Origin: Candidatus Poribacteria bacterium
GTDB lineage: Bacteria; Poribacteria; WGA-4E; WGA-3G
NCBI GenBank assembly: GCA_022821965.1
Contig: JAJECN010000037.1
Span: 145,656-209,655, forward strand
Direction: 5' to 3'
Length of the DNA stretch: 64,000 nucleotides
Below are positions 1,006 through 64,000 of this stretch, one piece after another. Both the position numbers and the translations under genes were made by a program. Each line of letters opens with the position of its first letter. Position 1 is the stretch's first letter. The notes under the pieces are model-generated. The model ran no database searches, had not been told where the DNA came from, and worked only from the letters and a program-made list of their open reading frames with translations.

Positions 1006-1097
1006 TGAATAAAATCGTTCTTTAATTGGACAAAATCGTTCCATAATGGTAAAATCGCTAAAGCGTAAATACAAAACACAATATAGGAAAACAAACA

Positions 1098-8978: not shown

Positions 8979-9078
8979 GGTTATCAGTTGTCAGTTGTCA
9001 GTTGTCAGTTAAAGAGACTTGTGGCAGGCAGCGTAATGATAAAGGACCACAATATCCCCGACTAATGACTGACAATTC
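8979..9078. repeat. Composite heptad-arm palindromic element, copy 2
   Basis: Left arm 8979-9010 is GGTTATCA(GTTGTCA)x3GTT, followed by AAAGAG at 9011-9016. The right arm GACTAATGACTGACAATTC (9060-9078) contains the channel start codon. Translation of the left arm (QLSVVSCQLSV) produces the spurious N-terminal extension of ORF 8810..9838. Confidence 0.8.
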
Positions 9079-11433: not shown

Positions 11434-11506
11434 GTTTGTCAGTTAGAAACGCCTGCAACCGCCACAAGGGGTTCTGACAACTAAAAGCGCAGCGCCCTGA
11501 TAACTA
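11434..11506. repeat. Short heptad-type palindromic element, copy 3
   Basis: GTTTGTCAGTTAG at 11434-11446 faces CTGACAACTA at 11474-11483 and CTGATAACTA at 11497-11506. Confidence 0.6.
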
Positions 11507-38395: not shown

Positions 38396-40054
38396 ATGAG
38401 AAAAGCAGAATTAAAATGGCAGTCAGCAATCAGCAATCAGCAGTCAGTCACTCGTTTTTGGCGGATAAAACGCTTTCACGCGCCACACGCCCTACTGAAA
38501 GCCGAAAGCCGAAAACCGAAAGCCAATACAAAATTGCTGCTAATCGTAAGCCTCCCTCTTGTTTTTTTGGCTTCTGCGAGCCATGCACATGCAGTTATCC
38601 CGCAGCTGCTGGGACCTCTCACGGCACTTTTGAGTATTGTCCCACAGATTCTTGCCTTTGTTGGGGTCGCGCTCATCACTGCGCTCGTGTTTGCGCGGGA
38701 CACGACCAAAATGTTTTTCTACAAGTTCCGTGACTTCGTTATTGCTCACAAGGTTATCACCTCTATTTTCAGCGTAATTGTCCTCGTGGGATTCCTATGG
38801 GGAAGCTACAGCCTGGTCAGGATGGCGACGAATCCGACAACTCAGTCGCTTGAAGCAACGGTTCAAAACACGGGTACAGGGAATACACAGGTCAACAAAG
38901 CATGGTCAACTTTTCGAGGTGGAAAAAATCGGACAGGACACGTAGATTCACTCCCCGGTCCAACAAATGAAACACCGGCATGGGTTTTCAGAGAGGAAGA
39001 AGCCATGGCGGTTGACTTCTCTTCGTCACCAGCCATCGTTGGGAATCGCCTCTATATCGGATCGTCACACGGTTCAATATTTTCGCTCGGTGGCGCAACC
39101 TACTGTATTGATACGGAAACACAGAAGGTACTCTGGCGACACGCTTCATCTATCCCAATCTTTTCATCCCCAGCAGTCGCTGGTGGTAGGGTTTATATCG
39201 GTGAAGGCTATCACCACGATAGCGATTGCAGCCTCCGATGCCTTGACGCGAAAACCGGTGAACTCATCTGGTCCTTCCAAACAACAAGCCACGTTGAATC
39301 AACGCCTTTCATCAGCCAGGGCAAGCTCTACTTCACAGCTGGGGCTGATGGGGTTTATTGTATTGATGCATTGGAAGGGCAAGCGATATGGCACTATAAA
39401 GACATTCACGCTGACATGTCCCCTGTTGTGCATAAAGACAAGGCTTACTTCGGCACAGGCTATGGTGATTATCGGATATACGCGGTCAATGCCCAAACAG
39501 GTGCTGAAGCATGGTCAAAGCAGATGCCGTATCCCGTGTGGGGAAGTCCGAGTGTTGATGAGAATCTCGTCTTTTTCGGGCTTGGGAGAGGAAACTTTTC
39601 GGATAGTGCGCCCATACCGGCGGGTAAAGTCGTCGCGCTTGACACAGAAACCGGCGACATCGTATGGGAACATGAGGCAGAGGATGCCGTCATGACAGCG
39701 ATTGCCGTCCAGGAGGGTTCCGTCACCTTCGGTTCGCGCGATGGATACGTCTATTCTCTCCAATCAACAGACGGAAAACTCAACTGGAAAACGCATCTTG
39801 GTGGACCCGTCGTCTCCTCACCCGCTGTGACGATGGACACCATCTATGCCGCAACAAAAAACGGATATATCTATGCCCTCTCTACTAACAATGGAGAGGT
39901 CCAGTGGGAATTTAATATGAGAATTGTTACCCGAAATATAGAACTTTATTCATCACCCGCGATTGCCAATGGACTGCTTTATATCGGTTCAAGCGATCGG
40001 TATATTTTCTGTTTGGGTGGTGAGGACGCTGGCAAAAGCATTGGTAATCGGTAA
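38396..40054 (+). CDS. Membrane-anchored PQQ-like (BamB-type) beta-propeller repeat protein
   Basis: Repeated SSPAxxxGxxYxG / DGxxYxL blades, with hydrophobic helices near the N-terminus. The first ~45 codons are a translated repeat element (QSAISNQQSV). In-frame TTG 38534 (LLLIVSLPLVFLASASHAHA) is a plausible true start. Confidence 0.8.
   Translation: MRKAELKWQSAISNQQSVTRFWRIKRFHAPHALLKAESRKPKANTKLLLIVSLPLVFLASASHAHAVIPQLLGPLTALLSIVPQILAFVGVALITALVFARDTTKMFFYKFRDFVIAHKVITSIFSVIVLVGFLWGSYSLVRMATNPTTQSLEATVQNTGTGNTQVNKAWSTFRGGKNRTGHVDSLPGPTNETPAWVFREEEAMAVDFSSSPAIVGNRLYIGSSHGSIFSLGGATYCIDTETQKVLWRHASSIPIFSSPAVAGGRVYIGEGYHHDSDCSLRCLDAKTGELIWSFQTTSHVESTPFISQGKLYFTAGADGVYCIDALEGQAIWHYKDIHADMSPVVHKDKAYFGTGYGDYRIYAVNAQTGAEAWSKQMPYPVWGSPSVDENLVFFGLGRGNFSDSAPIPAGKVVALDTETGDIVWEHEAEDAVMTAIAVQEGSVTFGSRDGYVYSLQSTDGKLNWKTHLGGPVVSSPAVTMDTIYAATKNGYIYALSTNNGEVQWEFNMRIVTRNIELYSSPAIANGLLYIGSSDRYIFCLGGEDAGKSIGNR
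38419..38524. repeat. Composite heptad-arm element, copy 4
   Basis: Left arm GCAGTCAGCAATCAGCAATCAGCAGTCAGTCAC at 38419-38451. Right arm CTGAAAGCCGAAAGCCGAAAACCGAAAGCC at 38495-38524. Confidence 0.75.
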
Positions 40055-40905: not shown

Positions 40906-40922
40906 CAGGGCAAGTCTCCGAA

Positions 40923-40954
40923 AAAAAGCCGCCAAAAATTTTGGCGGCTTTTTT
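40923..40954 (+). terminator. Rho-independent terminator
   Basis: AAAAAGCCGCCAAAAA/TTTTGGCGGCTTTTTT: a G/C core stem at 40928-40933 and 40943-40948 followed by a T-tract. Confidence 0.85.
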
Positions 40955-43634: not shown

Positions 43635-43894
43635 ATCTGGGCGTTACGCCAAATGTAAATGCAGGGGTACCCATAGCGAATAGCGTATGGGGGACAAATT
43701 ATGCCATTCAAAGCATAATTTCATTCCGCAACGGTTTCTATGGAAGTTGAACACTTGCTCTAGGTTCAAAAAGGTTTTAGACTTCACCGAAACCCATCGC
43801 GAAACGAAGTGGTGAGATTTAACCATCAACTCGCCTCCGTTATAGATGTTAAAGCACGAGTTGATAGTTAACAGGAGGCAATAGTTACAAAAAG

Positions 43895-47576: not shown

Positions 47577-48319
47577 TGGCGTGCTTGCAAGCGTGCGAGC
47601 TGTTCTCGGAGTTCTGCGGCTTCGGCTTCTGCCTGTTCGGCGCGTGTCTCTGCGACTTCGGCGCGTGTCTCTGCTGTCTGTCGCGCGACGGCTTCCTGTT
47701 CGGCGCGCGCCTCTGCCGTCTCCGCAGGCGTGTGAAGCCATTCTCTCACAACAGGATCATAAATTCCTAAACCTTCATCTCGAACGTGAAAATCTAAACC
47801 CAACGCAGGCGAATGCAAACCACCAGCTACACCTACAGGTACCTCTACATACGCACCCTCAACTAACTGAAAACCCATCAAGGGCGACGGCAGATACAAA
47901 CCTTCCGCATCATACAAGAAATAGTCCTGAATCCCAAGCTCAGCATAGAGATCATACTTGCCACTTAAGTCGTTTTGATATGTGCTTTCGCTCGAAAATT
48001 CCATCACGAAATCGGGTGTTTTGCCTTCCTCCCAGACCTTATACGTCCGACGAAGTCCCTGTCCTACCCCGAAAACAACGAGGACATCGGGTGAGACAAC
48101 CCGACGCGGGACACCCTTCTCGTAATACATCAGAATATCACCAGAGATATAGACTTCCGGCTGTGGGGCAAAATGTGTCTCAAGCGTTTGTAAAGTCCAT
48201 ATCAGTTGATCTCTATGAAGGTCACTGGCTGCCATCGGTTCTCCATCGCTGTCAGGGTAAAGGTCGGCTTCTTCTGTGGGGGCATAAGGAATCGGATGCC
48301 CTTTTGGATAAGTTTGCAT
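47573..48319 (-). CDS. Uma2-family (DUF820) endonuclease with a C-terminal coiled-coil tail
   Basis: PDSDGEPMA, PDFVMEFSS and GIQDYFLYD motifs. The tail is repetitive: AETRAEVAETRAEQAEAEAAELREQLARLQ. The stop overlaps the convergent gene stop (TTAG). Confidence 0.85.
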   Translation of the reverse strand: MQTYPKGHPIPYAPTEEADLYPDSDGEPMAASDLHRDQLIWTLQTLETHFAPQPEVYISGDILMYYEKGVPRRVVSPDVLVVFGVGQGLRRTYKVWEEGKTPDFVMEFSSESTYQNDLSGKYDLYAELGIQDYFLYDAEGLYLPSPLMGFQLVEGAYVEVPVGVAGGLHSPALGLDFHVRDEGLGIYDPVVREWLHTPAETAEARAEQEAVARQTAETRAEVAETRAEQAEAEAAELREQLARLQARH

Positions 48320-49834: not shown

Positions 49835-49911
49835 GGAGAAGAGTGGAAGAATGGAAGAGTAGAAGAGTGGGGGGCATCCATCCTTCCGTCCTTCCCTCTT
49901 TCCTTCCATTC
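49835..49911. repeat. Octad-arm purine/pyrimidine palindromic element, copy 1
   Basis: Left arm GGAGAAGA GTGGAAGA ATGGAAGA GTAGAAGA GTGGGGGG. Right arm CCTTCCGT CCTTCCCT CTTTCCTT CCATTC. Confidence 0.75.
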
Positions 49912-49919
49912 GATGGATT

Positions 49920-52325
49920 TCATAGGTTCTCTCCCTCAGTGAGAATGAGTCTCTGGTTGACAGATAGGTTCCGATGCGTATCCACTTGACCTGAGGGCCA
50001 GACGATTTCGAGGGTGTCAACTTTTGTGTGTGTTCCGAGTCCGATCTCAAGTGGCAGACTGTTGGTTGACCCGAAACCACATCCGCCGCTGACTTCTCTG
50101 TAAATTATATCATCCCGAATGCGTAAAGTCACTTTAGCACCGATACCATCCCGATTACTTTTGACCCCGACCAGTTTCAAATTAACCCAGTTGTTCCGTG
50201 TCCCCGTATTTTGATAGAAAAGATTGTGCCACTGGTCGCCGATAAATGCTCCACCGACGGGCACGTAGATATCGACATCCCCGTCCGTATCAATATCACC
50301 GAAGGTTACGCCGTGTCCCTTCCCAACGTTGCCCAAACCCAGAGCGACAGTCGCATCGGTAAAAGTGCCATCGCCGTTGTTGCGGAAGAGTGCGTCGCGT
50401 TCGAGTCGTCCCATCTGTGGTGCCCCGGTAGCGAGATAGATATCGAGATAACCGTCGCTATTGATGTCGCCGAAGTTTGCTCCCATCGCTCCAAAGGCGT
50501 GGTAGAGTCCTGACTCACGGGTGACATCCGTAAAGGTGCCGTCGCCGTTATTACGATAAAGCACCTGCCGATCACTGTCGTGTGGTGCACTCCCTGTGAT
50601 TTGACCTGCGATGAAGGCTTGAAAAGAGCCTGAGTTTGAAATGAAGATGTCCAGATCGGCATCGTTATCCACATCGAGAAAGAAGGTGACAAACGCATCC
50701 GTAACGGGAAGATTCATACCGGTCGTTGGAGTGACATCAGTGAACGTGCCATCACCGTTATTACGATAAAGGACGTTGGACTGTCCGAAATTGACGACAT
50801 GCAGATCAATATACCCGTCTTTATCGTAATCCCCCCAAGCCGTTCCGAGAGAGTTTCCAGTATCTGCGACACCGGCTGCTTCTGCGGTATTCGTGAAAGT
50901 GCCATTGCCGTTGTTACGGTATAAGACGTTCGCAGCACCATCGCCAATAACACCGTCCGCAACGTAGAGGTCAAGGTAGCCGTCATTGTCATAATCTGCC
51001 CAAGCAGCACAGAAACTGCACTGCGGGTCCGCAACACCTGCAGTGTTCGTGACATCGGTGAATGTGCCATTACCGTTGTTATGATAGAGCGTATTTTCCG
51101 CTGCCCCCGACCAACCCCCACGCGTGATGTAGAGGTCGAGGTAGCCATCGTTATCGTAATCAGCGAAGAGTGAACCCCAGCCACCTCTTGGATCGGCAAT
51201 GCCTGCTTCATCCGCGGTGTTGGTGAACGTCCCATCGCCGTTATTGCGGTAAAGTGCGTGGGGTTGGTACGTCCCGACAGCAACGATATCCAAATCACCA
51301 TCATTATCGTAATCGCCCCAAGCACTCCCGCGTCCACCATCGACCTTGTTCATTTCTAAGTCAGGTGCAGTATCTGTGAAATAGTTTTCAGTTTTCAGTT
51401 GTCGGTTATCAGTTAAGAGGTTTTCTGGTGAAGTTATATCCTCTTGATGATTGCTGACTGCTGACTGCTGACTGCTGATTGCTGACTGCTGACTGCTGAC
51501 CGCCATTTGGATTTTGAATTCCTCCGGTAAGTCTGCTGGATAGCCACCGATTTGACTATATGCTGTCCATAAGTTCCATAAGGTTTCGGGATCACGAGGT
51601 TTGAGCTGGAGTGACGCTTTGAAATTCTCAACGGCTTTTTCAGGAGCACCGTGTCGGAGATGATAGACCCCGAGATAATAATACGCACCAGAATGACGGC
51701 GGTAATTTTGGATGATATTTTCAAATCGCTCAGCGGCTTTATCGGCTTCACCGAGGCGGAATTCAGCTAAGCCGAGTTGGAGCATCGCTTCAAGATTATT
51801 CGGTTCAAGTTCCAGCACCTTTTCAAACTGCCGTTTGGATGCTGAGAGATCGGGGACGAGCATCTGTTGCGGCGCACCTAAAAAATAGCCGAGTCTGATA
51901 CGTGCGTCGGTATCATCAGGGTTTACCTCTAACGCACTGGTGAGGGCGGCGGTGGAATCAGAAAAGCGTTGTTGATAACTGAAAACCTGCGCTAATGTTA
52001 GATACGCTCTCGAAAGTTTATCCTTCGCTTCCGGTACCTGTTTAAGCAGGTTTATCAGCGTTTGTAACGTTTCTTCGGCGCGCGAAAACTTCTGCTGTCG
52101 GATATAAGTACGTGCGAGCTGCATGCGTGCCTCGTGGGCATTCGTATCAATTCGTAGGCACGCCTGAAACGCTTCTTCCGCTTCGACGAAGCTGTTTCTG
52201 TCTAAAGCGTCCATGCCCCTCTGATAGTGCGCGGTGACTTGCGGGTTTCCGTCATCTTGGGGTGAATCTGTATTACAGCCGATGCTAATGAGGAAGATAA
52301 GGCAAATAGAAAAAGTTGTTCGCAT
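49920..52325 (-). CDS. Lipoprotein: N-terminal TPR domain, repeat-encoded Q/S linker, FG-GAP/ASPIC (CRTAC1-like) module; paralogue 2
   Basis: A single 801-aa ORF. Signal plus Cys (LISIGC), ~270 aa of TPR, then AVSSQQSAISSQQSAVSNHQ...DNRQLKTEN encoded by the heptad element. The FG-GAP module then starts at ...YFTD, the same point as the mature N-terminus of the two paralogues. Confidence 0.7.
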   Translation of the reverse strand: MRTTFSICLIFLISIGCNTDSPQDDGNPQVTAHYQRGMDALDRNSFVEAEEAFQACLRIDTNAHEARMQLARTYIRQQKFSRAEETLQTLINLLKQVPEAKDKLSRAYLTLAQVFSYQQRFSDSTAALTSALEVNPDDTDARIRLGYFLGAPQQMLVPDLSASKRQFEKVLELEPNNLEAMLQLGLAEFRLGEADKAAERFENIIQNYRRHSGAYYYLGVYHLRHGAPEKAVENFKASLQLKPRDPETLWNLWTAYSQIGGYPADLPEEFKIQMAVSSQQSAISSQQSAVSNHQEDITSPENLLTDNRQLKTENYFTDTAPDLEMNKVDGGRGSAWGDYDNDGDLDIVAVGTYQPHALYRNNGDGTFTNTADEAGIADPRGGWGSLFADYDNDGYLDLYITRGGWSGAAENTLYHNNGNGTFTDVTNTAGVADPQCSFCAAWADYDNDGYLDLYVADGVIGDGAANVLYRNNGNGTFTNTAEAAGVADTGNSLGTAWGDYDKDGYIDLHVVNFGQSNVLYRNNGDGTFTDVTPTTGMNLPVTDAFVTFFLDVDNDADLDIFISNSGSFQAFIAGQITGSAPHDSDRQVLYRNNGDGTFTDVTRESGLYHAFGAMGANFGDINSDGYLDIYLATGAPQMGRLERDALFRNNGDGTFTDATVALGLGNVGKGHGVTFGDIDTDGDVDIYVPVGGAFIGDQWHNLFYQNTGTRNNWVNLKLVGVKSNRDGIGAKVTLRIRDDIIYREVSGGCGFGSTNSLPLEIGLGTHTKVDTLEIVWPSGQVDTHRNLSVNQRLILTEGENL
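51383..51500. repeat. Composite heptad-arm element, copy 5, lying in-frame inside a CDS
   Basis: AGTTTTCAGTTTTCAGTTGTCGGTTATCAGTT, AAGAGG (51415-51420) ... CCTCTT (51440-51445), then (TGCTGAC/TGCTGAT)x7 up to 51500. Confidence 0.8.
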
Positions 52326-54896: not shown

Positions 54897-55124
54897 ACCA
54901 AAAGCGGGGGGACGAATGGCAGTAGATTTCTTCCAGCCTTCCGATATGCTTGAATAGGTGAGTTGTGTGTCCATCCTCCTATAATTAAACCACACTTTTG
55001 CGGAGAATACAAATAGAAGAGGTTAGCAATCAGCGGTCAATAGGGCGAGGGCATCGGTAGGCAGAGGTCGCGATCGGGAAATCGGTGTTTACGGTATGAT
55101 GGCGTGTGTCTACTACTTTATGAG

Positions 55125-56537
55125 CTACAAACCTGCCAATCTCGCTTTCAGTTCTTCTTGTTGAACAGGTTGTGTCAAATCCATGAGATAGATCCGCATG
55201 TGATCAGAACGGTCGGAACTAAATACAAGTCTTTTCCCATCTCGTGAGAGACTCGGTTCAAAATGGGCACCGACGTAGTTCGTCAGCTGCGTTTTATTTC
55301 TGCCATCGGCACTCATCATCCAGAGCGTATAATGGTTATGCGCGTTTGAGACATAGATAATTCGCTTGCCATCCGAACTGAAAGTCGGATGATAATGGCT
55401 TGCGTTCGTAAACGTTAATTGCTTCGCCGTGCCGCCTGCTGCATTAACGCTGAAAATCTGATAGATATCACCCACCATTGCGGTGAAAGCGATCTGCTTT
55501 CCATTGGGTGCCCACGTTGGATGTCCGTCGTCTACATCGTTATGTGTCAGCTGCTTCTTGTTTGTGCCATCAATATGAATGACGTAGATTTCCAAGGTAT
55601 CATTATTCTGTAGGGGCGAGGTGACCTCGCCGCTACGAGAGAGGTTCTCGGCTTCTTGCGCAGGAGCCTTGGATTCAAAGGCGATCTTTTGTCCGTCAGG
55701 TGAGAAAACAGGCGCGCGCTGAGCCCCCTCTATATCGATTAATGGACGTTGGTTTCTCCCATCAATATCCATGAGATATATTGTGGCAGTGCTTGGGTCA
55801 GAACCACTCGCTTGGACAGGTGGGAGCATCATACCACCGCGGGTGCGTTCTGTAACGAAAGCAATAGACTTGCCATCTGGTGAAAAAGCAGGCATATATT
55901 CATCAAGTTCGTCGGTATGCGTGAGCTGCTGGAGTGAACGCGTCGTGAGATCCATGAGATATAATTCGGCGTTCTGGAGGCGATTGGAGGCGAAGGCGAG
56001 CCATTTCCCATCAGGCGAGATTGCGGGACTATAATCATCCGTGTACTTGGCAGTAAACGTCATCATATTCCCTTTTTCGGTAAAGGTTTGCTCGTAATCG
56101 TCGCTACCTTCGGTGCGGAGACGTTGGACATGGTAGGCATCACCGGTGAGTCCAGCCAATTGAAGGAGGACATCTTTTTTTGGAGAACCGCTTAGCAGAT
56201 TTTGAAACTGAACAAGCGCGAGGGAACGGTCATTATGATGCCAATAAACGCGCCCGAGTGCCAAGGTGATTTCTGCACGTTTCGGTGCCAACTTCGCTGC
56301 ACTTCTGAAGGCATCACTCGCTTGTGTCGCATCCTCTAACCTTTCATACACCAAACCGAGCTGATAGTAAGCCTCGGCATTGGAAGGGTTCTGCTTAATT
56401 GCCGCTTCAAACTGCTGAATAGCAGCAGTCGTGTCGCCTGTTTCAAGAAACGCTTTGCCGCGCTCAAGGGTAGGATCTCCACCGCATGCGAATAGCATTA
56501 GAAATATAGAAATGAATAGGTAAAAACGGGTGTTCAT
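55125..56537 (-). CDS. TPR plus TolB-like (PD40/WD40-like) beta-propeller protein
   Basis: N-terminal TPRs (AEAYYQLGLVYERL). At least six SPDGKxIAF-type blades: SPDGKWLAF, SPDGKSIAF, SPDGQKIAF, APNGKQIAF, SSDGKRIIY and SRDGKRLVF. Confidence 0.8.
   Translation of the reverse strand: MNTRFYLFISIFLMLFACGGDPTLERGKAFLETGDTTAAIQQFEAAIKQNPSNAEAYYQLGLVYERLEDATQASDAFRSAAKLAPKRAEITLALGRVYWHHNDRSLALVQFQNLLSGSPKKDVLLQLAGLTGDAYHVQRLRTEGSDDYEQTFTEKGNMMTFTAKYTDDYSPAISPDGKWLAFASNRLQNAELYLMDLTTRSLQQLTHTDELDEYMPAFSPDGKSIAFVTERTRGGMMLPPVQASGSDPSTATIYLMDIDGRNQRPLIDIEGAQRAPVFSPDGQKIAFESKAPAQEAENLSRSGEVTSPLQNNDTLEIYVIHIDGTNKKQLTHNDVDDGHPTWAPNGKQIAFTAMVGDIYQIFSVNAAGGTAKQLTFTNASHYHPTFSSDGKRIIYVSNAHNHYTLWMMSADGRNKTQLTNYVGAHFEPSLSRDGKRLVFSSDRSDHMRIYLMDLTQPVQQEELKARLAGL
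55609..55636 (+). repeat. REP-like hairpin embedded in-frame in the TolB-like CDS
   Basis: TGTAGGGGCGAGG-tga-CCTCGCCGCTAC on the plus strand. It is translated on the minus strand as ...SRSGEVTSPLQ... between two propeller blades. Confidence 0.6.
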
Positions 56538-56540
56538 TTT

Positions 56541-56643
56541 TATTAGTTATCAGTTAATAGTTGTCAGTTATCAGTAGAAATGGACATCAGCAGTTAGCAA
56601 TCAGCCGAAAGCCATCTGACTGACCACTGAAAACTGAAGACTG
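56541..56643. repeat. Composite heptad-arm element, copy 6
   Basis: TATTAGTTATCAGTTAATAGTTGTCAGTTATCAGT ... CTGACTGACCACTGAAAACTGAAGACTG. It fills the whole spacer between two minus-strand genes. Confidence 0.75.
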
Positions 56644-56648
56644 TTAAC

Positions 56649-58313
56649 TCATTTTTGCGTTATCTGGATTCGCTGATTTACTGGTATATTATGGCGTGTT
56701 TGCGTCTCTCCATTCTGCCAAGTAATCTGTAACGTCTCAATACGGGAGGCGTTTCCGACTCCGAATTCAGCAACGAGACTGCTAAAGGACATGTAACTAT
56801 CACCGGCATAAATTTCTCGTATCTGCGTCTGATCTGCCGTTTTCACTTGGATTTTTGCGCCGATAGCATCTCGATTCGCGCCTGTTCCGATCAGTTTGAC
56901 ATGCAGCCAATTGTTTCGCCCTGTTAATATACTGCGGTCGCCCTCATTGCGCAACAGGGTTGGTGGTGCGTGGTTATTGACGATGAAAATATCAACATCG
57001 CCATCGTTGTCATAGTCGCCAAAGGTTGCCCCGCGCCCAACTCGGAGAGGGAGTGCGGCAATCCCCGAGCTTTCACTAACATCGGTAAACATCCCATCCC
57101 CATCGTTTCGGAACAACGCATCAGGTTGAGGGATAAGCACCTCCGGTTGTTTAAGCTCCTGAAAAGTGCTGCCGTTCGTTACAAAGATATCCAAATCTCC
57201 ATCGTTGTCGTAGTCAAAGAACGCTGTCCCCCACCCAATCTGCTTGATACTCTCTTCAGCAAGCATCGCCGTATAGGATTCATCTACAAACCTGATACGT
57301 TCAGCAATCCCATCCTCTATGAACAAATTTCTATAGAGTGCGTTTTCCTCGTCAACCCAGTGACTCATAAAGAGGTCAATATCGCCGTCAGCATCATAAT
57401 CACCGGCAGTGAGTCCCATAGAACCTCGAAAATCCGCCGCCCACGATTCATCGCTAACATCGGCAAACGTCCCGTCACCATTGTTGCGATAGACATGGTT
57501 CGTAGAAGTATCATTCGCAACATAGAGGTCCAGATCATTATCGTTATCAAAATCGCTAAAGACGGCTTGCATACTTCTACCACCCGTTGCTGCTACTCTT
57601 ACCTCGGCAGTTACATCGGTAAAAGTGCCGTCACCGTTGTTCCGATAAAAAACGTTATCTTGGGGTTCAAAAACATGCGGGTTCAGGGCACTCGGCACCG
57701 GTTTTCCAGATTGTAAGGACTCCTCCTTCATCTGTTCCAGTTGATCTAAATCGTAGGTGACATAGTTACAAACGTAGAGATCGAGGTCGGTGTCCCCGTC
57801 CACATCTGCGAAGGCAGCACCGGTACTCCACAACTCACAACCGACACCGGCACTCTCGGTTACATCGGTAAATGTGCTGTTCCCGTTATTCCGATAGAGA
57901 ACGTTCGCACCGTAATTGGTTAGGTAAAGGTCGAGGTCAGCATCCCCGTCGTAATCGGCGAAAACACACCCCATGCCGTATCCTTGATGCCCAACGCCTG
58001 CAGCACGCGTTATATCCGTAAATGTACCATCACCATTATTCCTATACAAGGCATTCATGTTGCCTGCACTGCTGCCAGCGTCTTGTGTAAAGGGACCGGG
58101 GATATTGACAATATAGAGGTCAATGTCCCCGTCGTTGTCGATGTCGGCGAAACCTGCGCCGGACCCCATGTCTTCTGGGAGTAGGCTGGAACGGGTTCCG
58201 CTTGAATGCTGAAAATTGATACCGGCTTCGTTCGTGACATCTGTAAAGGTAACCGCGTTTAGCGTCATAGCCGTTAGCATAGAGATTGCAAACACTACGA
58301 AGAAGGCGGACAT
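56649..58313 (-). CDS. FG-GAP/VCBS repeat plus ASPIC/UnbV protein (CRTAC1-like), paralogue 3
   Basis: Same motif set as the paralogues. ATG 58313 gives the signal peptide MSAFFVVFAISMLTAMTLNA. The longer ORF to 58454 is translated repeat (FATSQFHNFSISNF) and would overlap accC. Confidence 0.85.
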   Translation of the reverse strand: MSAFFVVFAISMLTAMTLNAVTFTDVTNEAGINFQHSSGTRSSLLPEDMGSGAGFADIDNDGDIDLYIVNIPGPFTQDAGSSAGNMNALYRNNGDGTFTDITRAAGVGHQGYGMGCVFADYDGDADLDLYLTNYGANVLYRNNGNSTFTDVTESAGVGCELWSTGAAFADVDGDTDLDLYVCNYVTYDLDQLEQMKEESLQSGKPVPSALNPHVFEPQDNVFYRNNGDGTFTDVTAEVRVAATGGRSMQAVFSDFDNDNDLDLYVANDTSTNHVYRNNGDGTFADVSDESWAADFRGSMGLTAGDYDADGDIDLFMSHWVDEENALYRNLFIEDGIAERIRFVDESYTAMLAEESIKQIGWGTAFFDYDNDGDLDIFVTNGSTFQELKQPEVLIPQPDALFRNDGDGMFTDVSESSGIAALPLRVGRGATFGDYDNDGDVDIFIVNNHAPPTLLRNEGDRSILTGRNNWLHVKLIGTGANRDAIGAKIQVKTADQTQIREIYAGDSYMSFSSLVAEFGVGNASRIETLQITWQNGETQTRHNIPVNQRIQITQK

Positions 58314-58321
58314 GTGATATT

Positions 58322-58421
58322 GGCTTTCGGTTTTCGGCAAGGAGACAGGAAAGTTGGAAATTGAGAAGTTGTGAAATTGTGAAGTTGCGAAGTTATGACC
58401 TCCTAACTTCCTAACTTTCGC
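58322..58421. repeat. Octad-arm (GAAGTTGN) palindromic element preceded by two heptads
   Basis: GGCTTTCGGTTTTCGG, then GAAAGTTG GAAATTGA GAAGTTGT GAAATTGT GAAGTTGC GAAGTTAT, turning into CCTAACTTCC TAACTTTC. Confidence 0.7.
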
Positions 58422-58450
58422 ACACTTGATAACTTTTGGATGACTATTTT

Positions 58451-59809
58451 TCATGTCTCTAAGAAATTCGTAAAAACTGCTCTACCGAGGAAGCGTTCAT
58501 CGTCAAGAATATCCCCGTAGAGTGGAATTGTGGTCTTTATGCCCTCAATCTTGAACTCAGACAATGCGCGTTTCAACCGTGCAATCGCCTCCTCTCGATC
58601 CCTACCCATCGCGATAAGTTTCGCCACGAGTGAGTCGTAGTGCGGAGGCACGGTATAGCCGGTGTAGATATACCCATCAACCCGGACACCGATGCCGCCC
58701 GGAGGCTGGTAGGTTGTGACGAGTCCTGGTGACGGCATGAATTGATTTGCCGGGTCTTCGGCATTAATCCTGCATTCAATAGCGTGTCCTTGAATCTGGA
58801 TATCGGATTGATTATATCCGAGTTCATCACCCATTGCGAGTCGGATCTGTTCCTTAATGAGATCAATGCCGGTGATACTCTCAGTGATAGTGTGCTCGAC
58901 TTGAATCCGGGTATTCATTTCAAGGAAATAAAAATTCTCATCTTTATCAACCACGAACTCAATGGTTCCGGCATTCGTGTAACCGATCGACTTCGCGGCT
59001 TTCGCGGCGGCTTTACAGATTTCAGAACGAAGTTTAGATGAAATTGAGGCAGCGGGTGCTTCTTCGAGCAGTTTCTGCTGTTTACGCTGGATAGAGCACT
59101 CACGTTCACCTAAATGAACAACGTTACCGTGGGTATCGCCCAGAATTTGGACTTCAATATGCCGTGCTTCCTCAATCCATTTTTCAATGTAGACATCACC
59201 GTTGCCAAACGCCGCTTCACCCTCCGCTTTTGCTGTGTGAAAAAGGTTAAAAAGGCTCGGACGGTTTTCAGCGATTCGGATGCCACGCCCACCACCACCT
59301 GCCACGGCTTTAATGCCAACAGGATACCCTATTTTCTCAGCGAGCTCCGCAGCGTCCTCAGCGGTTTCAACTGTCGCCTTCTTGTTATTTCTCCGTCTAC
59401 CACTTCCGCTGCCGGGTACAAGCTTCAAGCCAGCTTTCGACACAGTCTCACGTGCCTTCACCTTGTCACCCATCGTCACGATATCTGTAACAGAGGGTCC
59501 GATGAACTTTATTTCGTGCGCCTCACACATCTCCGCGAACTGCGCATCCTCAGCGAGAAAGCCTGCTCCGGGATGGATCGCGTTGACATTTGCATAATCC
59601 GCGACAGTGATAATACTTGAGTATTTCAGATAACTCGCTGCTGAGGGGGGCGGGCCGATGCAGTATTTCTCGTCAGCGTATTTAACGTGCAGGGCATCTT
59701 CGTCAGCGGTCGAGTAAATCGCTACCGTTTTAATCCCCATGTCTTTACATGCGCGGATGATGCGGACAGCGATCTCACCACGATTTGCTATCAGTATCTT
59801 TTTTATCAT
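58451..59809 (-). CDS. accC: Acetyl-CoA carboxylase biotin carboxylase subunit
   Basis: MIKKILIANRGEIAVRIIRAC... with ATP-grasp motifs, 452 aa. Confidence 0.97.
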   Translation of the reverse strand: MIKKILIANRGEIAVRIIRACKDMGIKTVAIYSTADEDALHVKYADEKYCIGPPPSAASYLKYSSIITVADYANVNAIHPGAGFLAEDAQFAEMCEAHEIKFIGPSVTDIVTMGDKVKARETVSKAGLKLVPGSGSGRRRNNKKATVETAEDAAELAEKIGYPVGIKAVAGGGGRGIRIAENRPSLFNLFHTAKAEGEAAFGNGDVYIEKWIEEARHIEVQILGDTHGNVVHLGERECSIQRKQQKLLEEAPAASISSKLRSEICKAAAKAAKSIGYTNAGTIEFVVDKDENFYFLEMNTRIQVEHTITESITGIDLIKEQIRLAMGDELGYNQSDIQIQGHAIECRINAEDPANQFMPSPGLVTTYQPPGGIGVRVDGYIYTGYTVPPHYDSLVAKLIAMGRDREEAIARLKRALSEFKIEGIKTTIPLYGDILDDERFLGRAVFTNFLET

Positions 59810-59835
59810 GTATTTTTAATGTTCCTTGCGGAAAT

Positions 59836-59925
59836 AATTATCAGTTAACAACTGTCAGTTACCAGAAGATCTTGGTTAAACAAAGCACCTCTTTCACTGA
59901 TAACCGAAAACCGAGAACCGAAAAC
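59836..59925. repeat. Composite heptad-arm element, copy 7
   Basis: AATTATCAGTTAACAACTGTCAGTTACCAG AAGAT...CCTCTTT CACTGATAACCGAAAACCGAGAACCGAAAAC. Confidence 0.8.
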
Positions 59926-59932
59926 TAAAGCA

Positions 59933-60451
59933 CTATGCTTGCTTCACTCGGAACAGAGGCTGTCCATATTCAACCGCCTCGCTATCTTCAGCGAGGATCT
60001 CTAATATCTCACAGTTAAATGGAGCTTCCACTGGATTGTAAGTTTTCATGACTTCAAGGACAGCAACAGGTTCACCCGTGGCAACCACATCCCCGACGTT
60101 CACAAAGGGTGGCTCATCAGGGGCAGGAGAACGGTAGAAGCGTGAAGGCATCGGGGCACTGATGAATCCATTATCCGCCTGCGCGCCCGCCTCCACATTT
60201 GCTTTTTCTGCAGGCAGCTGCGGTGTCCCCGCCGCAATTCCTGTCTCTGCCGGTTGTAGTGCCGGCTGCTCATATCCGCCTGGACTACTCCGGTGTCGGG
60301 AGACCTGCACCTCGAATTCGTTGTCCCGGATACGGACCTCTGTAAGACCAGTGCGGTCAAGGATCTCTGCCAACTGTTCAACAATCTCCAGAGCCTCACT
60401 ATAGTCCTGTTCCGCAGCTTGAGGTTTATCCTTGGATTTGTTTTGACGCAT
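59933..60451 (-). CDS. accB: Biotin carboxyl carrier protein of acetyl-CoA carboxylase
   Basis: C-terminal biotinyl domain with LEVMKTYNPVEA. ATG 60451 is chosen; the upstream GTG 60493 lies inside a 20-bp palindrome. Confidence 0.9.
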   Translation of the reverse strand: MRQNKSKDKPQAAEQDYSEALEIVEQLAEILDRTGLTEVRIRDNEFEVQVSRHRSSPGGYEQPALQPAETGIAAGTPQLPAEKANVEAGAQADNGFISAPMPSRFYRSPAPDEPPFVNVGDVVATGEPVAVLEVMKTYNPVEAPFNCEILEILAEDSEAVEYGQPLFRVKQA

Positions 60452-60463
60452 TTCTGTTTTTAA

Positions 60464-60506
60464 TAGTTGTCGGTGCGTGTTGCTATGCAACACGCACCGA
60501 CAACTA
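60464..60506. repeat. Perfect 20-bp palindrome with a 3-nt loop between efp and accB
   Basis: TAGTTGTCGGTGCGTGTTGC-tat-GCAACACGCACCGACAACTA, abutting the efp stop codon (60507-60509). Confidence 0.85.
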
Positions 60507-61064
60507 CTATATCCTTTCTACATATTTTCCGGTGCGCGTGTCAACTTTGATGCGCGTTTGGTTCTGAACAAACAAAGGAACGTTAACAACGCCACCTGTC
60601 TCAAGTGTCGCACGTTTTGAACCGCCGCTGACAGTGTCGCCCCGTAATCCGGGATCAGTCTCAACGATTTGAAGTTCAACGAAGTTCGGAAGTTCAACCG
60701 CAAGTGGTACCGTTCCTTCCATTTTGACGGTGACAGTCTCACCCTCTTTTAGGAATTTCAGGTCATCTCCAATAAGATTTACAGGGAATGTATATTGTTC
60801 AAATGTTTCATTGTCCATAAACCACAGTACATCACTCTCGCGGTACATATACTGCATCTGGTGATCCATGAGTCTGACGGTTTCGACGTTTTCATTGGAG
60901 CGAAACGTCCTGTCCAAAACGGCACCGTCGGAAACACGTTTAATTTTTGTTCGTGCGAAGGCACCGCCTTTCCCGGGCTTGACGTGCTCACAACTGACGA
61001 TGGTGTAGATAGTATCATTGAGTCGGATGACCAACCCGTTTCGTAAATCGTTAAGTGCTGCCAT
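60507..61064 (-). CDS. efp: Elongation factor P
   Basis: 185 aa. HVKPGKGGAFARTKIK contains the conserved modified-Lys loop. Confidence 0.97.
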   Translation of the reverse strand: MAALNDLRNGLVIRLNDTIYTIVSCEHVKPGKGGAFARTKIKRVSDGAVLDRTFRSNENVETVRLMDHQMQYMYRESDVLWFMDNETFEQYTFPVNLIGDDLKFLKEGETVTVKMEGTVPLAVELPNFVELQIVETDPGLRGDTVSGGSKRATLETGGVVNVPLFVQNQTRIKVDTRTGKYVERI

Positions 61065-61075
61065 TTTCTCCTCTG

Positions 61076-61193
61076 TTAGTAGTTATCAGTAATCAATAGT
61101 AGTTAGTCTTCGGTCATCAGTTTTCGGATAAGAGACTCCCTGATATCCACAAAAACCTCTTGTCTGACTACCGAGAACCGACAACCGATAACC
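61076..61193. repeat. Composite heptad-arm element, copy 8
   Basis: GTTAGTAGTTATCAGTAATCAATAGTAGTTAGTCTTCGGTCATCAGTTTTCGG, TAAGAG...CCTCTT (61156-61161), then GTCTGACTACCGAGAACCGACAACCGATAACC. It ends ...CCGATAACCATTA at the rdgB stop, the same junction as copy 1. Confidence 0.8.
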
Positions 61194-61194
61194 A

Positions 61195-61782
61195 TTAAAG
61201 CAAAGCAATCGCTTGTTCCAACGCCTTTGCCCTATGGCTAATCTGGTTTTTTATTTCCTCTCCCAATTCCGCGAAAGTCTGATCGTAACCCTCGGGTACA
61301 AACACAGGGTCATAACCGAAACCGCTCTCTCCTATAGGGGCATGTCTGATGTGTCCTTCACAAACACCGAGAACTGTCTCAGGCGCAGAATCCGGTTGTA
61401 CGACTGCGATCGCAGCAACGAAACGCGCCCGCCGATCCGTGACACCTTCAAGTCTCTGAAGAAGTTTCTCGATTCGGATAGCATCGGTTGCGTCTTCACC
61501 AGCCCAGCGTTTAGAATTGACACCCGGGGCACCGTTGAGAGCATCTACCTCCAATCCAGCGTCATCAGCGAGGGTGAGAAGGGACGTATACTCGGCAATA
61601 ACGGATGCTTTTTTGGCTGCATTCTCCGTATACGTTTTTCCATCCTCAATTACCTCTGGCGCATCTGGATAACTTTCCAAGGAGATAACCTCGATTTGCT
61701 GCTCGGCGGTTGCTTCGAGGCGGAGCATATCTGTGAGTTCTTTCACCTTCCCCTGGTTACGCGTCGCCAATACGAGCTTCAT
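61195..61782 (-). CDS. rdgB: dITP/XTP pyrophosphatase (non-canonical purine NTP pyrophosphatase)
   Basis: [16 protein letters not shown]... and FGYDPVF motifs. Overlaps the rph stop. Confidence 0.93.
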
Positions 61783-62515
61783 CTAAATTCTCCAACATCA
61801 TCCGATTCTGAAGGCGGATGAGCTGCTGTATACCCCCAACAGCGAGATCCAGCATCTGATCGTAGTCTTCACGCGAAAAGGGCTTTTCCTCTGCCGTGCC
61901 CTGTATCTCTATAAATTTCCCGCTTCCAGTCATAACAATGTTCATATCAACATCTGCTGTTGAGTCTTCCGAATAGCAGAGATCCAACATCGGTTCACCT
62001 TTGACCAGTCCGACACTCGTTGCGGCAATATTGTCAATGATAGGGAAACTTTCGATTCTTTTGCTTTTAACGAGTTCTTGACAGGCATCCCAGAGGGCAA
62101 TGAAGGCTCCCGTAATCGAGGCAGTACGTGTTCCACCATCCGCTTGAATGACATCACAATCAACCCAGATTGTCTTCTCTTCTAAGGCACCCAAATCAAT
62201 AGCGGCACGTAGGGAACGTCCGATAAGACGTTGAATTTCCTGTGTTCTACCACCAACACTCCCGCGAGTTACCTCACGTTGCATCCGTTGAGAAGTCGAA
62301 CGCGGTAACATCGAGTATTCAGCCGTTACCCACCCCTTATTTTTGATTCGCTGGTCACGCATGAAACGCGGCTGCTGGTCAATAACGGACGCTGTGCATA
62401 TAATATGGGTATCACCTGTCGCAACGAGGACTGAGCCCTCGGCATGTTTGATGTAGTGTCGTTTGATTGTGACGGGGCGCAACTCATCTAACCCGCGTCC
62501 ATCCTCTCTTGCCAT
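61757..62515 (-). CDS. rph: Ribonuclease PH
   Basis: [13 protein letters not shown]...AEGSVLV...[11 protein letters not shown] motifs. Confidence 0.97.
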
Positions 62516-62633
62516 TTCTCTCCTTCCTATAGATTATGCAAATCGGACGGATCTAAAGAAGGAAGACATACGATCACAATTTACGTGTCTGTCTTCAGAT
62601 CCACGCAGTAGAAGGACAGCCACAAGGCTGTCT

Positions 62634-62873
62634 CTACATCGTTTTAAGCAAATCTAACGCCTTTGTATAACTTTTCCGCTCAAGATAATGCTGCAGCATT
62701 TTGGGGGCTGCCGGAGTGAGGTCGCGGGACAACGTGTCAATCCGTTCCAACTGCTCTAATATATCCTCGCCCGTTTCAATCCGCGCCAACATTGTCTCTA
62801 ACGCTTGCCTAAGCTCGGCAATTTGAACAGCAAGTTTTGACTCGCCAGCTGCGTCAAAAGGCTCAACTCGCAT
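62634..62873 (-). CDS. Small helical hypothetical protein
   Basis: ATG 62873 (MRVEPFD...) within ORF 62634..62999 overlaps the upstream PhyH stop by 11 nt. No family recognised. Confidence 0.4.
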   Translation of the reverse strand: MRVEPFDAAGESKLAVQIAELRQALETMLARIETGEDILEQLERIDTLSRDLTPAAPKMLQHYLERKSYTKALDLLKTM

Positions 62874-63780
62874 CCGATACCTCCATCTCCTCAACGGCTT
62901 TGCAGGTTCGCAGAGAAACGTTCTTAGGAGGCACGTCGTAACCTTTCCATGCGTACGGATCAACACCAGAAACTGGAATGATGCATCGCCGGTCAGCACT
63001 CGCCGGACGTTCTCCCTCTCTAAGCGACCAAGGTAACAACGACCAAGAATTACAGTAATGACTCACCAAAACCCTGCGATATGTATCACCACGGTTTTTA
63101 CGCGATCGATGGAGTAGATACCCGTTGAAGAAAACTAAAGTGCCGGTTTTAACTTCAACTGGGACCTCATCCGTGTCATCAAAGCCGTAACTCTCCTCCG
63201 CGAAGTCAAACTCATCTGGATTTTCATGAGGCTTCTGCGGATAGAGGTAACCTTGACGGTGTGAACCCGGCAGAATCCATAAGCACCCATTTTCCACGGT
63301 AGCGTCGTCCATTGCTATCCAAGCCCCAATCAAAGAGCGATCGCGCGTCGGAATGTAGATCTCGTCCTGATGCCACGCTTGCCCTTGGAAATTCGGCGGT
63401 TTAACGAAAAGCATAGACTGCATGCACTTGACGCTTCCATCCCAATACGGGAGATGTGCCGCGGCGATCTGGCTCAAGATACCGCAAATTTTCGGGTGTT
63501 TAACGTACCTCTCAATAATCGGACTGACAAAATGCGGTTGATGAATACAAAGGATACGGTTAATCACTTCGGTATCACTGACATCTTCAAGAAGTGGTTC
63601 GAGGTTGTCACACGGATGACCACCTTTAGCGATTGTAACGGTGTCCTGCCGTAATTCCTCTATTTCATCAAGCGAAAGCAGATCTGGAACAACAAGATAC
63701 CCATTGTCCACAAAAAACTGGACCTGCTCGTCGGATACAACTTGTGGCACCTCAATCGGTGCGCTTGGTTCAAAGTTCAT
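62863..63780 (-). CDS. PhyH-family Fe(II)/2-oxoglutarate dioxygenase
   Basis: FFVDNGYLVV, WHQDEIY (HxD) and LLHRSRKN motifs. Confidence 0.85.
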   Translation of the reverse strand: MNFEPSAPIEVPQVVSDEQVQFFVDNGYLVVPDLLSLDEIEELRQDTVTIAKGGHPCDNLEPLLEDVSDTEVINRILCIHQPHFVSPIIERYVKHPKICGILSQIAAAHLPYWDGSVKCMQSMLFVKPPNFQGQAWHQDEIYIPTRDRSLIGAWIAMDDATVENGCLWILPGSHRQGYLYPQKPHENPDEFDFAEESYGFDDTDEVPVEVKTGTLVFFNGYLLHRSRKNRGDTYRRVLVSHYCNSWSLLPWSLREGERPASADRRCIIPVSGVDPYAWKGYDVPPKNVSLRTCKAVEEMEVSDAS

Positions 63781-63847
63781 TTTTTTTATAATTATGTTCG
63801 AGCGATACCTCCGTTGTCGGCATCGGTCTAAAATTGATAAAAACCGA

Positions 63848-63966
63848 AGTAGTTATCAGTTGTCAGTACGGTTTTTCTGCGAAAAACCTTTCAGTTTTCA
63901 GAAAGAGGCTTCGGGAGTATCCCACCCCTCTTGTAACCGATAACCGATAACTGAAAACCGAAAACC
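63848..63966. repeat. Composite heptad-arm element, copy 9
   Basis: AGTAGTTATCAGTTGTCAGTACGG...TTTCAGTTTTCAG AAAGAGG...CCTCTT (63927-63932), then GTAACCGATAACCGATAACTGAAAACCGAAAACC. Confidence 0.8.
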
Positions 63967-64000
63967 ATCTTTAGATTATCAACCGCCTTTTAACGATTAG

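Follow-up and report, generated by a model that had tools for sequence, protein, structure and literature searches.

Cyanobacterial tandem heptamer repeats have been on record since about 1990, the year in which Mazel et al. reportedly described the STRR heptamers; those of Beggiatoaceae and Bacteroidetes were added later. The STRR units are CCCCAGT (STRR1), TTGGTCA (STRR2) and CAACAGT (STRR3). Here we analyze a family of palindromic elements built from tandem heptamers (heptads) in 64 kb of the Candidatus Poribacteria contig JAJECN010000037.1 (the window, or WIN in strain comparisons). The elements belong to an already known kind of heptamer repeat but come from a phylum new to it, and their paired architecture is unusually regular.

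Hairpin-forming STRR repeats with a 7-bp unit occur in intergenic regions of Nostoc, Anabaena and Lyngbya, for example between hupS and hupL and in the region upstream of hoxW (PMC2670836). They lie near the 3' end of the upstream gene, and a role in transcript stability or translational coupling has been proposed for them (PMC2670836). Direct repeats of TAACTGA are found in marine Beggiatoaceae, Thiocystis, 15 cyanobacteria and 5 Bacteroidetes (MacGregor 2015, Front Microbiol 6:1397, PMC4679880). Forward TAACTGA arrays are located just upstream of start codons; reverse arrays are open in all frames and lie past stop codons or within open reading frames (ORFs). In the BOGUAY genome the repeats replace the ribosome-binding site, and 1 of 170 TAACTGA sets is an inverted pair. 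Cyanothece strains differ by 7-nucleotide (nt) indels, and a function as translation regulator has been proposed (PMC4679880). A different kind of repeat is formed by the REP/BIME sequences, GTAG- or CGTC-tagged palindromes that are short, lie mostly downstream of coding regions, vary between strains and occasionally sit in genes (Di Nocera et al. 2013, PMC3733652). It has been proposed that REPs are mobile but non-autonomous and that they act as RNA hairpins as well (PMC3733652).

Our literature search found no description of heptamer repeats of this kind in Poribacteria. Poribacteria are the fourth distant lineage with the same heptamer unit, which is abundant here and occurs in a very regular paired form. 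The phylum also offers many chromosome-level genomes, including a sister group without the repeats. Co-distribution with genes and strain-level gain, replacement and resizing hence become computable.

Architecture and polarity of the paired arrays

Judged by its flanking genes, the host is Candidatus Poribacteria, a sponge symbiont, and not a cyanobacterium: the closest relatives of the Ham1/RdgB gene beside copy 8 (68-92% identity) all come from metagenome-assembled genomes (MAGs) of Candidatus Poribacteria, many of them chromosome-level. Our comparison set consists of 34 related genomes (655 kb), labelled L plus a number. Across these genomes the order PhyH, RNase PH (rph), RdgB, EF-P, AccB, AccC, FG-GAP/ASPIC, TPR-PD40 is conserved, hence orthologous spacers can be compared. 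Copy numbers are based on the window, which holds 9-11 sites, plus the loci of the relatives.

Period-7 arrays number 12 in the window and 228 in the relatives, about 3.5 per 10 kb in the clade. In the four Poribacteria loci that are most distant, arrays are nearly absent (2 in 75 kb), and tandem dimers of the family's own units are absent from 28 non-Poribacteria loci. In the window, 5 + 7 arrays were observed in which three or more units with a TCRG or CYGA core follow each other every 7 nt; shuffled sequences gave 0.02 + 0.04. The 9-mer RGTTRTCRG occurs 31 times where 3.3 occurrences are expected; left arms match the + strand and right arms the - strand. Consensus units include AGTTGTC, TAACCGA, GCAATCA, GAAAGCC, TGACTGC and similar heptamers. 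The arrays reported by Tandem Repeats Finder (TRF) have 3.4-7.6 unit copies in the window (Table 1).

To describe the order of neighboring arrays we classed each as L (RG-rich) or R (CY-rich) and paired neighbors within 200 nt. Among about 240 arrays, adjacent arrays are ordered L then R in 53 cases and R then L in none (2 L-L, 4 R-R). An R-L order could form an equally good hairpin. Hence, the polarity tells us more than the word palindrome does.

All parts of the element follow one plan: AAT-RG, (NNRTCRG)n, TTAAGAGG, centre, CCTCTTAA, (CYGAYNN)n, CY-ATT. Of the 53 arm pairs, 16 match the inner junction TTAAGAG(G)...(C)CTCTTAA exactly on both sides and 36 on at least one, compared to 0.6% of random windows. 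The 7-nt register continues through the core (TTATCAG TTAAGAG GTTTTCG .. CGAAAAC CTCTTAA CTGATAA). At the left edge, AAT-RG, the motif RTAG is present in 32 of 53 pairs against a background of 6%, and the right edge mirrors it as CY-ATT. The L arm starts a median of 2 nt past the upstream stop codon. The R arm ends a median of 17 nt ahead of the downstream start, and a GGAG-type Shine-Dalgarno sequence (GAGGAG or AAGGAG) is kept between right arm and ATG in the Poribacteria genes.

The two arms of an element belong together, if loosely. True arm partners pair with -0.89 kcal/nt and permuted partners with -0.65 kcal/nt (p < 0.0005, 53 pairs). The true partner reaches a median rank of 12 of 53, and the lengths of the two arms do not correlate (rho 0.17). 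The arms are complementary at the level of the heptad family only. We dropped a model of symmetric growth from the centre outwards because of the uncorrelated arm lengths.

Much of this architecture had been proposed in an earlier note, which was made from the window alone. Its nine sites with period 7 and with 5' RGTTRTC-type and 3' GAYAACY-type arms are borne out by TRF and the shuffle scan, with paired arms in eight of the nine. Eight copies also fold better than dinucleotide shuffles on one strand or both (best-strand z between -2.55 and -5.74). Copy 3 is marginal: it has single units only, its z is close to zero on both strands, and it is a degenerate family member at best. The inner motif AAGAG...CTCTT holds in the window and, as the junction counts above demonstrate, in the relatives. 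The junction CCGATAACCATTA, in which TTA is a stop codon, is indeed identical beside copies 1 and 8.

Other parts of the description need correction. The TCAG/CTGA core is not invariant. TCGG/CCGA is equally common, and TTGG, TTAG, CCAG and TAAG occur in relatives. We considered CpG decay as the process behind the TCGG/TCAG and CCGA/CTGA variation. The strain differences are transitions, but the observed/expected ratio of CpG in the window is 1.18, so there is no depletion and we rejected this idea. Most copies are intergenic as claimed, but copy 5 lies in-frame inside a conserved gene of 801 aa. A placement between convergent, tandem and divergent genes alike finds no support, since all copies with both flanks in the window lie between same-strand genes. 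Elements are held by 6 of about 35 tandem spacers and 0 of about 19 convergent or divergent ones, a difference that is not significant.

Two of the control loci from other phyla carry period-7 arrays of their own. In Prevotella (L040) these are found at positions 660-840, 2221-2273 and 9972-10001; CAACACC arrays end exactly at the Ham1 ATG, and C/A-rich repeats come after a GGGTGTT array. In a member of the Endomicrobiaceae (Elusimicrobia, L047) they are found at 17958-18040 and 20300-20395, where AGTTTGT...CTATAAG pairs lie shortly before an ATG. Both share the G/T-rich-first polarity of the Poribacteria arrays.

Turnover and the individual copies

The elements change much faster than their surroundings. 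One and the same orthologous spacer contains different heptad families in different genomes (AGTTATC, AGCAGTC/AGCCGTC, AGTTATA, AGTTATT, AGTTACC), and in some genomes it is empty and 21-37 nt long. Even the closest genome in GTDB, whose flanking proteins are 92-99% identical, has different elements in the rdgB-efp and accB-accC spacers. Copy 8 in the rdgB-efp spacer is identical in L001 and absent or replaced in other genomes.

Five metagenome contigs with an identical EF-P protein and 97-98% nucleotide identity resolve these changes further. Four of the five (L072-L075) have kept the rdgB-efp element of the window with few transitions (5 in L072); the fifth has another element. Copy 7 is identical in L072. 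The efp-accB spacer of the same strains contains three unrelated elements, and those of L071, L073, L074 and L075 are unlike the window's. When WIN and L074 are compared at this spacer, the outer units are common and the interior is replaced. The palindrome at 60461-60509 differs from that of L072 by one compensatory change from C-G to T-A. In other close genomes the differences consist of duplicated modules and of single 7-nt units, such as the one GGTTGTC unit that distinguishes L017 from L019.

Parts of the elements are also dispersed among loci. A palindromic core of about 29 nt, AAGAGGTTTTCGTTTAACGAAAACCTCTT (that is, AAGAGGTTTTCGTTTAACGA...CCTCTT), is present in at least five non-orthologous spacers, and the heptad families that flank it differ. 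A hairpin module of the form (A/T)CGG-T5-7-loop-A5-7-CC(T)T is found within arrays of the window (63868-63890) and of L017, L026, L029, L004, L009, L010, L014, L019 and L025. In the window, L017 and L026 this module (ACGG-T5-6-loop-A5-6-CCTT) is set between TCAGT and TCAG, in a single orientation relative to the heptads.

Two further kinds of repeat occur inside heptad arrays. An element of about 55-70 nt that resembles a miniature inverted-repeat transposable element, with terminal inverted repeats TTAACCATCAACTCG/CGAGTTGATGGTTAA, stands alone at 43819-43871 of the window and is nested in heptad arrays of L005, L009, L010, L014, L015 and L030. The rdgB-efp array of L021 (10579-11296) contains six tandem units of about 100 nt (TATACCCACTTATCTTGATTAGAAG...), of which there are none in the sister genome L020.

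Table 1. Heptad elements of the window, with the period-7 arrays reported by TRF, the gene context and the folding relative to dinucleotide shuffles
Element	Position	Composition	TRF arrays	Context	Fold
Copy 1	7-194	left arm 8-38 (AGTTGTC x4.4), GTGAAGAG, ~130-nt centre, CCTCTT, right arm 169-194 (TAACCGA-type)	8-38/169-194	adjoins stop codon 196-198 of DUF481 (Pfam) gene 196-1098(-)	- strand -57.5 kcal/mol, z -5.74
Copy 2	8979-9078	strong left arm 8979-9010 (GGTTATC, AGTTGTC x3), TTAAAGAG, degenerate right arm ~9061-9075	8980-9010	permease gene 8058-8975(+) / ion-channel gene with ORF falsely extended through copy 2	z -1.49 sense, -2.96 antisense
Copy 3	11434-11506	single L-type GTTTGTCAGTTAG + R-type CTGACAACTA, CTGATAACTA units, no arrays		ABC ATPase/permease gene spacer	z -0.03 and +0.16
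Copy 4	38419-38524	left arm GCAGTCA/GCAATCA x4 (38419-38447), right arm GAAAGCC x4 (38497-38524)	38419-38447/38497-38524		z -0.61 sense, -4.14 antisense
Copy 5	51383-51500	left arm AGTTTTC/GGTTATC (51383-51414), TTAAGAGG...CCTCTT, right arm TGCTGAC x7.6 (51448-51500)	51383-51414/51448-51500	inside gene 49920-52325(-), 801 aa	
Copy 6	56541-56643		56540-56575	spacer of FG-GAP/ASPIC gene (stop 56649) and TPR/PD40 gene (start 56537), both - strand	z -3.88 and -3.34
Copy 7	59836-59925	sense (-): GGTTTTC/GGTTCTC/GGTTATC arm, GAAAGAGG, centre, CTGACAG/CTGATAA arm	59902-59925	accB-accC spacer	z -2.55 sense, -0.54 antisense
Copy 8	61076-61193	left arm 61076-61128, AAGAG 61130-61134, CTCTT 61157-61161, right arm 61164-61193 (CTGACTA CCGAGAA CCGACAA CCGATAA CC)	61166-61193	rdgB(Ham1)-efp spacer; adjoins Ham1 stop codon 61195-61197	z -2.29 and -2.66
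Copy 9	63848-63966	left arm broken by nested 23-nt hairpin ACGGTTTTTCTGCGAAAAACCTT (63868-63890), AAAGAGG...CCTCTT, right arm 63934-63966 (TAACCGA x4.7)	63934-63966	beside start (63780) of PhyH gene 62863-63780(-)	z -4.76 and -4.11
Additional element	60461-60509	near-perfect palindrome, 23-nt arms TAGTTGTCGGTGCGTGTTGC-ATA-GCAACACGCACCGACAACTA, 3-nt loop, 96% complementary; outer arms = one heptad-family unit AGTTGTCGG		efp-accB spacer	-40.1 kcal/mol, z -12.8
Additional element	~58305-58450 (- strand)	begins AAAATAG, period-8 inverted arms GAAGTTAG.../CAACTTCN..., then CCGAAAACCGAAAGCC heptads		accC/FG-GAP spacer; ends 8 nt ahead of probable FG-GAP start ATG 58304-58302	

The two additional elements had been missed because stop-free arms lengthen ORFs over them. 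This matters for annotation: the arms cause false N-terminal ORF extensions and conceal true starts, and naive ORF calls mis-delimit both accB and the FG-GAP gene. Comparison between strains places the true accB at 59933-60451 (172 aa), and the naive start at GTG 60493 concealed the palindrome. For the FG-GAP gene, the ORF 56649-58454 probably reaches about 50 codons too far, and ATG 58304 is the likely true start. Alignments of this gene by tblastn start at query residue ~37-52, and L002 holds a heptad element in the same spacer. The false extensions QLSVVSCQLSV and QSAISNQQSV that the note had described are present in the ORFs of the window.

At copy 4, a beta-propeller ORF reads from ATG 38396 through the element (MRKAELKWQSAISNQQSV...KAESRKPKANTK) into a signal-peptide-like stretch (38396-38530). 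From the reading frame, copy 4 may be either a 5' leader, with the true start a TTG just past the element, or a second translated copy in an N-terminal coding part. Tandem repeats in other coding regions of the window (47628-47717 and 49838-49907; a 21-nt unit x4.3 and two 8-nt arrays) seem to be unrelated to the heptad family.

Copy 5 supplies about 40 residues of a real protein. The gene encodes a TPR domain (aa 29-258), followed by FG-GAP and ASPIC domains from aa 338 (Pfam), and in some twenty related genomes its product aligns from end to end with about 85% identity. Translated in-frame, the element forms the linker between the domains (aa ~273-315). Orthologous linker sites contain either heptad elements of 60-147 nt or a linker of 69-75 nt without heptad arrays, and the linker length is divisible by 3 in 21 of 21 orthologous variants.

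A small palindrome, GGGGTTTG(T/A)AACCCCGAATT, fills the linker site in L004, L006, L007, L009, L021 and L025, where no heptad element is present. It is also found between genes, in the rdgB-efp spacer of L030 and L032. Hence, the linker site may be a hot spot for small repeats.

Selfish repeats or selected structures

To explain these observations, we propose a palindromic repeat of the STRR/TAACTGA class, spread through one clade of Candidatus Poribacteria, that evolves fast, is probably selfish and is tolerated in the gap from a stop codon to the ribosome-binding site that follows. We hold this explanation with a confidence only a little above even. The comparisons between genomes show that, at the DNA level, the gain, loss and replacement of elements far outpace the divergence of the flanking genes, that a small palindromic core is dispersed to many loci and that other small hairpin modules insert into arrays. 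Replication slippage would let the arrays grow and shrink in 7-nt steps, and conversion would keep the arms alike.

Elements would then persist where they are least harmful. The spacing of the arms from stop and start points to this, as does the in-frame linker copy: the stop-rich arm, which ends about 17 nt before the start, leaves the Shine-Dalgarno sequence free, and the open-frame arm starts about 2 nt after the stop. If transcribed, the elements would form imperfect hairpins of 20-35 bp inside operon transcripts. If mRNA stability, processing or translation were affected, this would be a side effect and not the reason why the elements are kept, although the hairpins may matter for some genes. 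The 53:0 polarity and the termini would reflect common descent of one terminal-inverted-repeat lineage.

Several observations weigh against this proposal. No transposase, RAYT or other mobilising gene turned up, although no search was aimed at one. No two copies are near-identical, hence they give no evidence of recent transposition. In certain spacers the majority of genomes have an element (efp-accB in at least 23 of 34 by the TRF criterion), as selection for "some hairpin here" would give. The compensatory change in the efp-accB palindrome fits selection for pairing as well as conversion from arm to arm. To explain the polarity, all heptad families have to be assumed to share a common descent, and a functional or mechanistic cause is conceivable instead. 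Finally, the placement of copies between same-strand genes only could hint at a role within transcripts, although the counts are not significant.

Alternatively, the elements could be functional intercistronic RNA hairpins that are selected for their structure, as a shield of upstream mRNA segments against 3' exonucleases, as RNase III sites or to set the expression ratio of cistrons; such roles have been proposed for REP and for STRR hairpins of cyanobacteria. The folding of eight of the nine copies and, above all, of the efp-accB palindrome fits this explanation, and so does the better pairing of true arm partners. Equally in line with it are the compensatory change, the filling of the same spacers in many genomes (though with different sequences), and the same-strand context of the copies, which extends to the spacer within accB-accC. 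Transcript stability or translational coupling is also what has been proposed for STRR. However, hairpin function alone leaves the complete lack of the R-L order unexplained. It also fits poorly with arms that match at the family level only and do not correlate in length, with spacers that are empty in some genomes and with a copy that is translated in-frame.

The choice of strand speaks against selected hairpins as well. The spacers belong to a block with a single direction of transcription, and a G-U pair on one strand is a C-A mismatch on the other. No folding preference for the sense strand was detected (sense better in 17 cases, worse in 18). Arm-to-arm boundaries gave 22 for the sense and 15 for the antisense strand (p 0.43), and G-U pairs number 131 versus 122. 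Copies 4 and 5 of the window fold well only in the antisense direction. There is no sign that the structure of a particular transcript is what is maintained. The potential to form hairpins, which the note had pointed out, stands for eight of the nine; a periodic stem that G:U options preserve finds no support as a signal at the RNA level, since both strands fold equally. No Rfam family matches anywhere in the window. A scan of 55000-64000 for intrinsic terminators (a G+C-rich stem followed by a T tract) found none at an element on the sense strand. On balance, we regard selected RNA hairpins as unlikely.

A terminator-like structure was seen away from the elements: two convergent genes of the window are separated by a perfect 16-nt palindrome, AAAAAAGCCGCCAAAA-T-TTTTGGCGGCTTTTTT (40922-40954), which looks like a canonical bidirectional intrinsic terminator. 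Hence, the genome does use ordinary terminators.

A broader possibility is that the elements are the footprint of a dedicated, horizontally spreading machinery common to Nostocales, Beggiatoaceae, some Bacteroidota and this Poribacteria clade. This putative machinery would copy or add 7-nt units in one direction, at breaks or at the centres of palindromes. It would explain the L-R polarity, the register through the core and the patchy distribution of one unit across phyla. We think it quite improbable that this is so; if the distribution across phyla did reflect shared machinery, the elements would be of higher interest.

Slightly less probable still is that the arrays are binding sites for a sequence-specific nucleic-acid-binding protein, following MacGregor's proposal of S1, Csp or a CsrA-like protein (PMC4679880). 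In such a scenario, the G-poor, stop-rich arm just before the start would have a part in the initiation of translation and would be masked or unmasked by the arm complementary to it. The unit family and the orientation rule agree with those of the TAACTGA repeats, the A/C-rich heptad arrays of Prevotella and Elusimicrobia also end at or near an ATG, and a strict polarity is expected of a direction-dependent site. However, the Poribacteria genes keep their Shine-Dalgarno sequence between arm and ATG, whereas the BOGUAY repeats replace theirs. Furthermore, the units at one locus vary widely between genomes, which is hard to fit with a single sequence-specific reader.

We give even less credence to the idea that the arrays are the product of a directional enzyme, which would add templated units at a break or at the centre of a palindrome in the manner of a reverse transcriptase or recombinase. 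Both arms would be built with the G/T-rich strand 5' to 3' towards the centre. Such a process would account for the absolute polarity and the 7-nt register through the core, for the common outer and different inner units of WIN and L074, and for one unit in four distant phyla. The RNA intermediates reportedly proposed by Elhai et al. (2008) for the small repeats of Nostoc heptamer arrays would be in line with it, too. Yet the uncorrelated arm lengths speak against symmetric addition, and slippage combined with common descent of a terminal-inverted-repeat lineage is the simpler account.

That the elements are random low-complexity tracts without common organisation, one of the outcomes that the earlier note had named as its refutation, has practically no likelihood: copy 3 alone is no better than random, but 12 arrays stand against 0.02-0.04 in shuffles, the 9-mer is in clear excess, the polarity is 53:0 and the inner motif is found in 30-68% of pairs.

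Comparison with described repeat families

Like REPs, the Poribacteria elements are short imperfect palindromes that are mostly found downstream of coding regions, vary between strains and occasionally lie within a gene. Unlike REPs, which have no such arms, their arms are periodic with 7 nt. We also rejected membership in the GTAG-tagged REPs, palindromes of 20-40 nt with an unpaired tag at one end: GTAG is present at 7 of 53 left edges, and the edge AATAG/AATGG is paired with CYATT, which leaves no unpaired tag.

Rickettsia palindromic elements (RPE) are said by Ogata et al. (2000) to insert in-frame in genes and to be translated as an extra peptide. Copy 5 resembles them in that it is palindromic and translated in-frame, as a linker of the 801-aa protein. 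The RPE are 100-150 bp long and non-periodic; unlike them, most Poribacteria copies are intergenic, and there is no sequence similarity.

A closer parallel may be drawn to Nostoc punctiforme, for which Elhai et al. (2008) reportedly described mobile hairpin repeats of 21-27 nt (SDR1-8) embedded in heptamer arrays. RNA intermediates are said to have been proposed there for small repeats in the heptamer arrays. The small hairpin modules of Poribacteria (~21-29 nt) are likewise embedded and nested in heptad arrays, a likeness by description only. In contrast to the Nostoc SDRs, no involvement of HIP1 was seen, and the phylum is a different one.

With the STRR repeats the Poribacteria elements share tandem heptads of several copies, a dispersed and mostly intergenic location, the capacity to form hairpins and high variability between related strains. 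They differ in that no Poribacteria consensus unit is a rotation or complement of STRR1, STRR2 or STRR3 and in that the host is not cyanobacterial.

The likeness to the TAACTGA repeats extends to the unit itself. The right-arm unit of Poribacteria is a rotation of the TAACTGA type (TAACTGA, TAACCGA, CAACTGA, AAACTGA), although exact TAACTGA dimers number 0 in the window (where TAACCGA, CAACTGA and TGCTGAC dimers are present) and 6 in the relatives. As in Microcystis, units are mixed with related heptamers, here one-base variants within arrays. Both kinds of repeat are mostly intergenic, differ between close strains and have no established function. Their orientation agrees as well: the R arm lies before a start, the L arm after a stop, and the coding copy is read in stop-free frames. 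What sets the Poribacteria repeats apart from single TAACTGA arrays is that they form inverted pairs around the conserved core TTAAGAGG...CCTCTTAA. Unlike the BOGUAY repeats, their arms leave the Shine-Dalgarno site downstream intact, and Poribacteria lie outside the published distribution of TAACTGA.

A search of plasmids by BLAST with a synthetic consensus element also gave matches in Pantoea ananatis (7 places, one of them in a LysR gene) and Streptomyces clavuligerus; these are candidate arm matches of 26-31 nt with 93-97% identity.

The same search gave matches in Nostoc, Kovacikia and Hymenobacter. A plasmid of Nostoc flagelliforme carries (AGTTGTC)7, a 15-nt centre and (TGATAAC)4.6, the same L-R arrangement as in Poribacteria. 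On a Hymenobacter plasmid, paired AGTTGTC...GACAACT arrays separate two genes of the same strand. Neither of these two plasmid examples showed the AAGAG/CTCTT core, and the first 50 kb of plasmid alpha of Nostoc PCC 7120 have few arrays, too few for a comparison. The resemblance to STRR that was initially suggested is correct, but the accompanying statement that the paired-arm organisation matches no described family is overstated: STRR repeats that form hairpins and TAACTGA heptamers are known from the literature, and the plasmids of Nostoc and Hymenobacter carry the same paired arrays.

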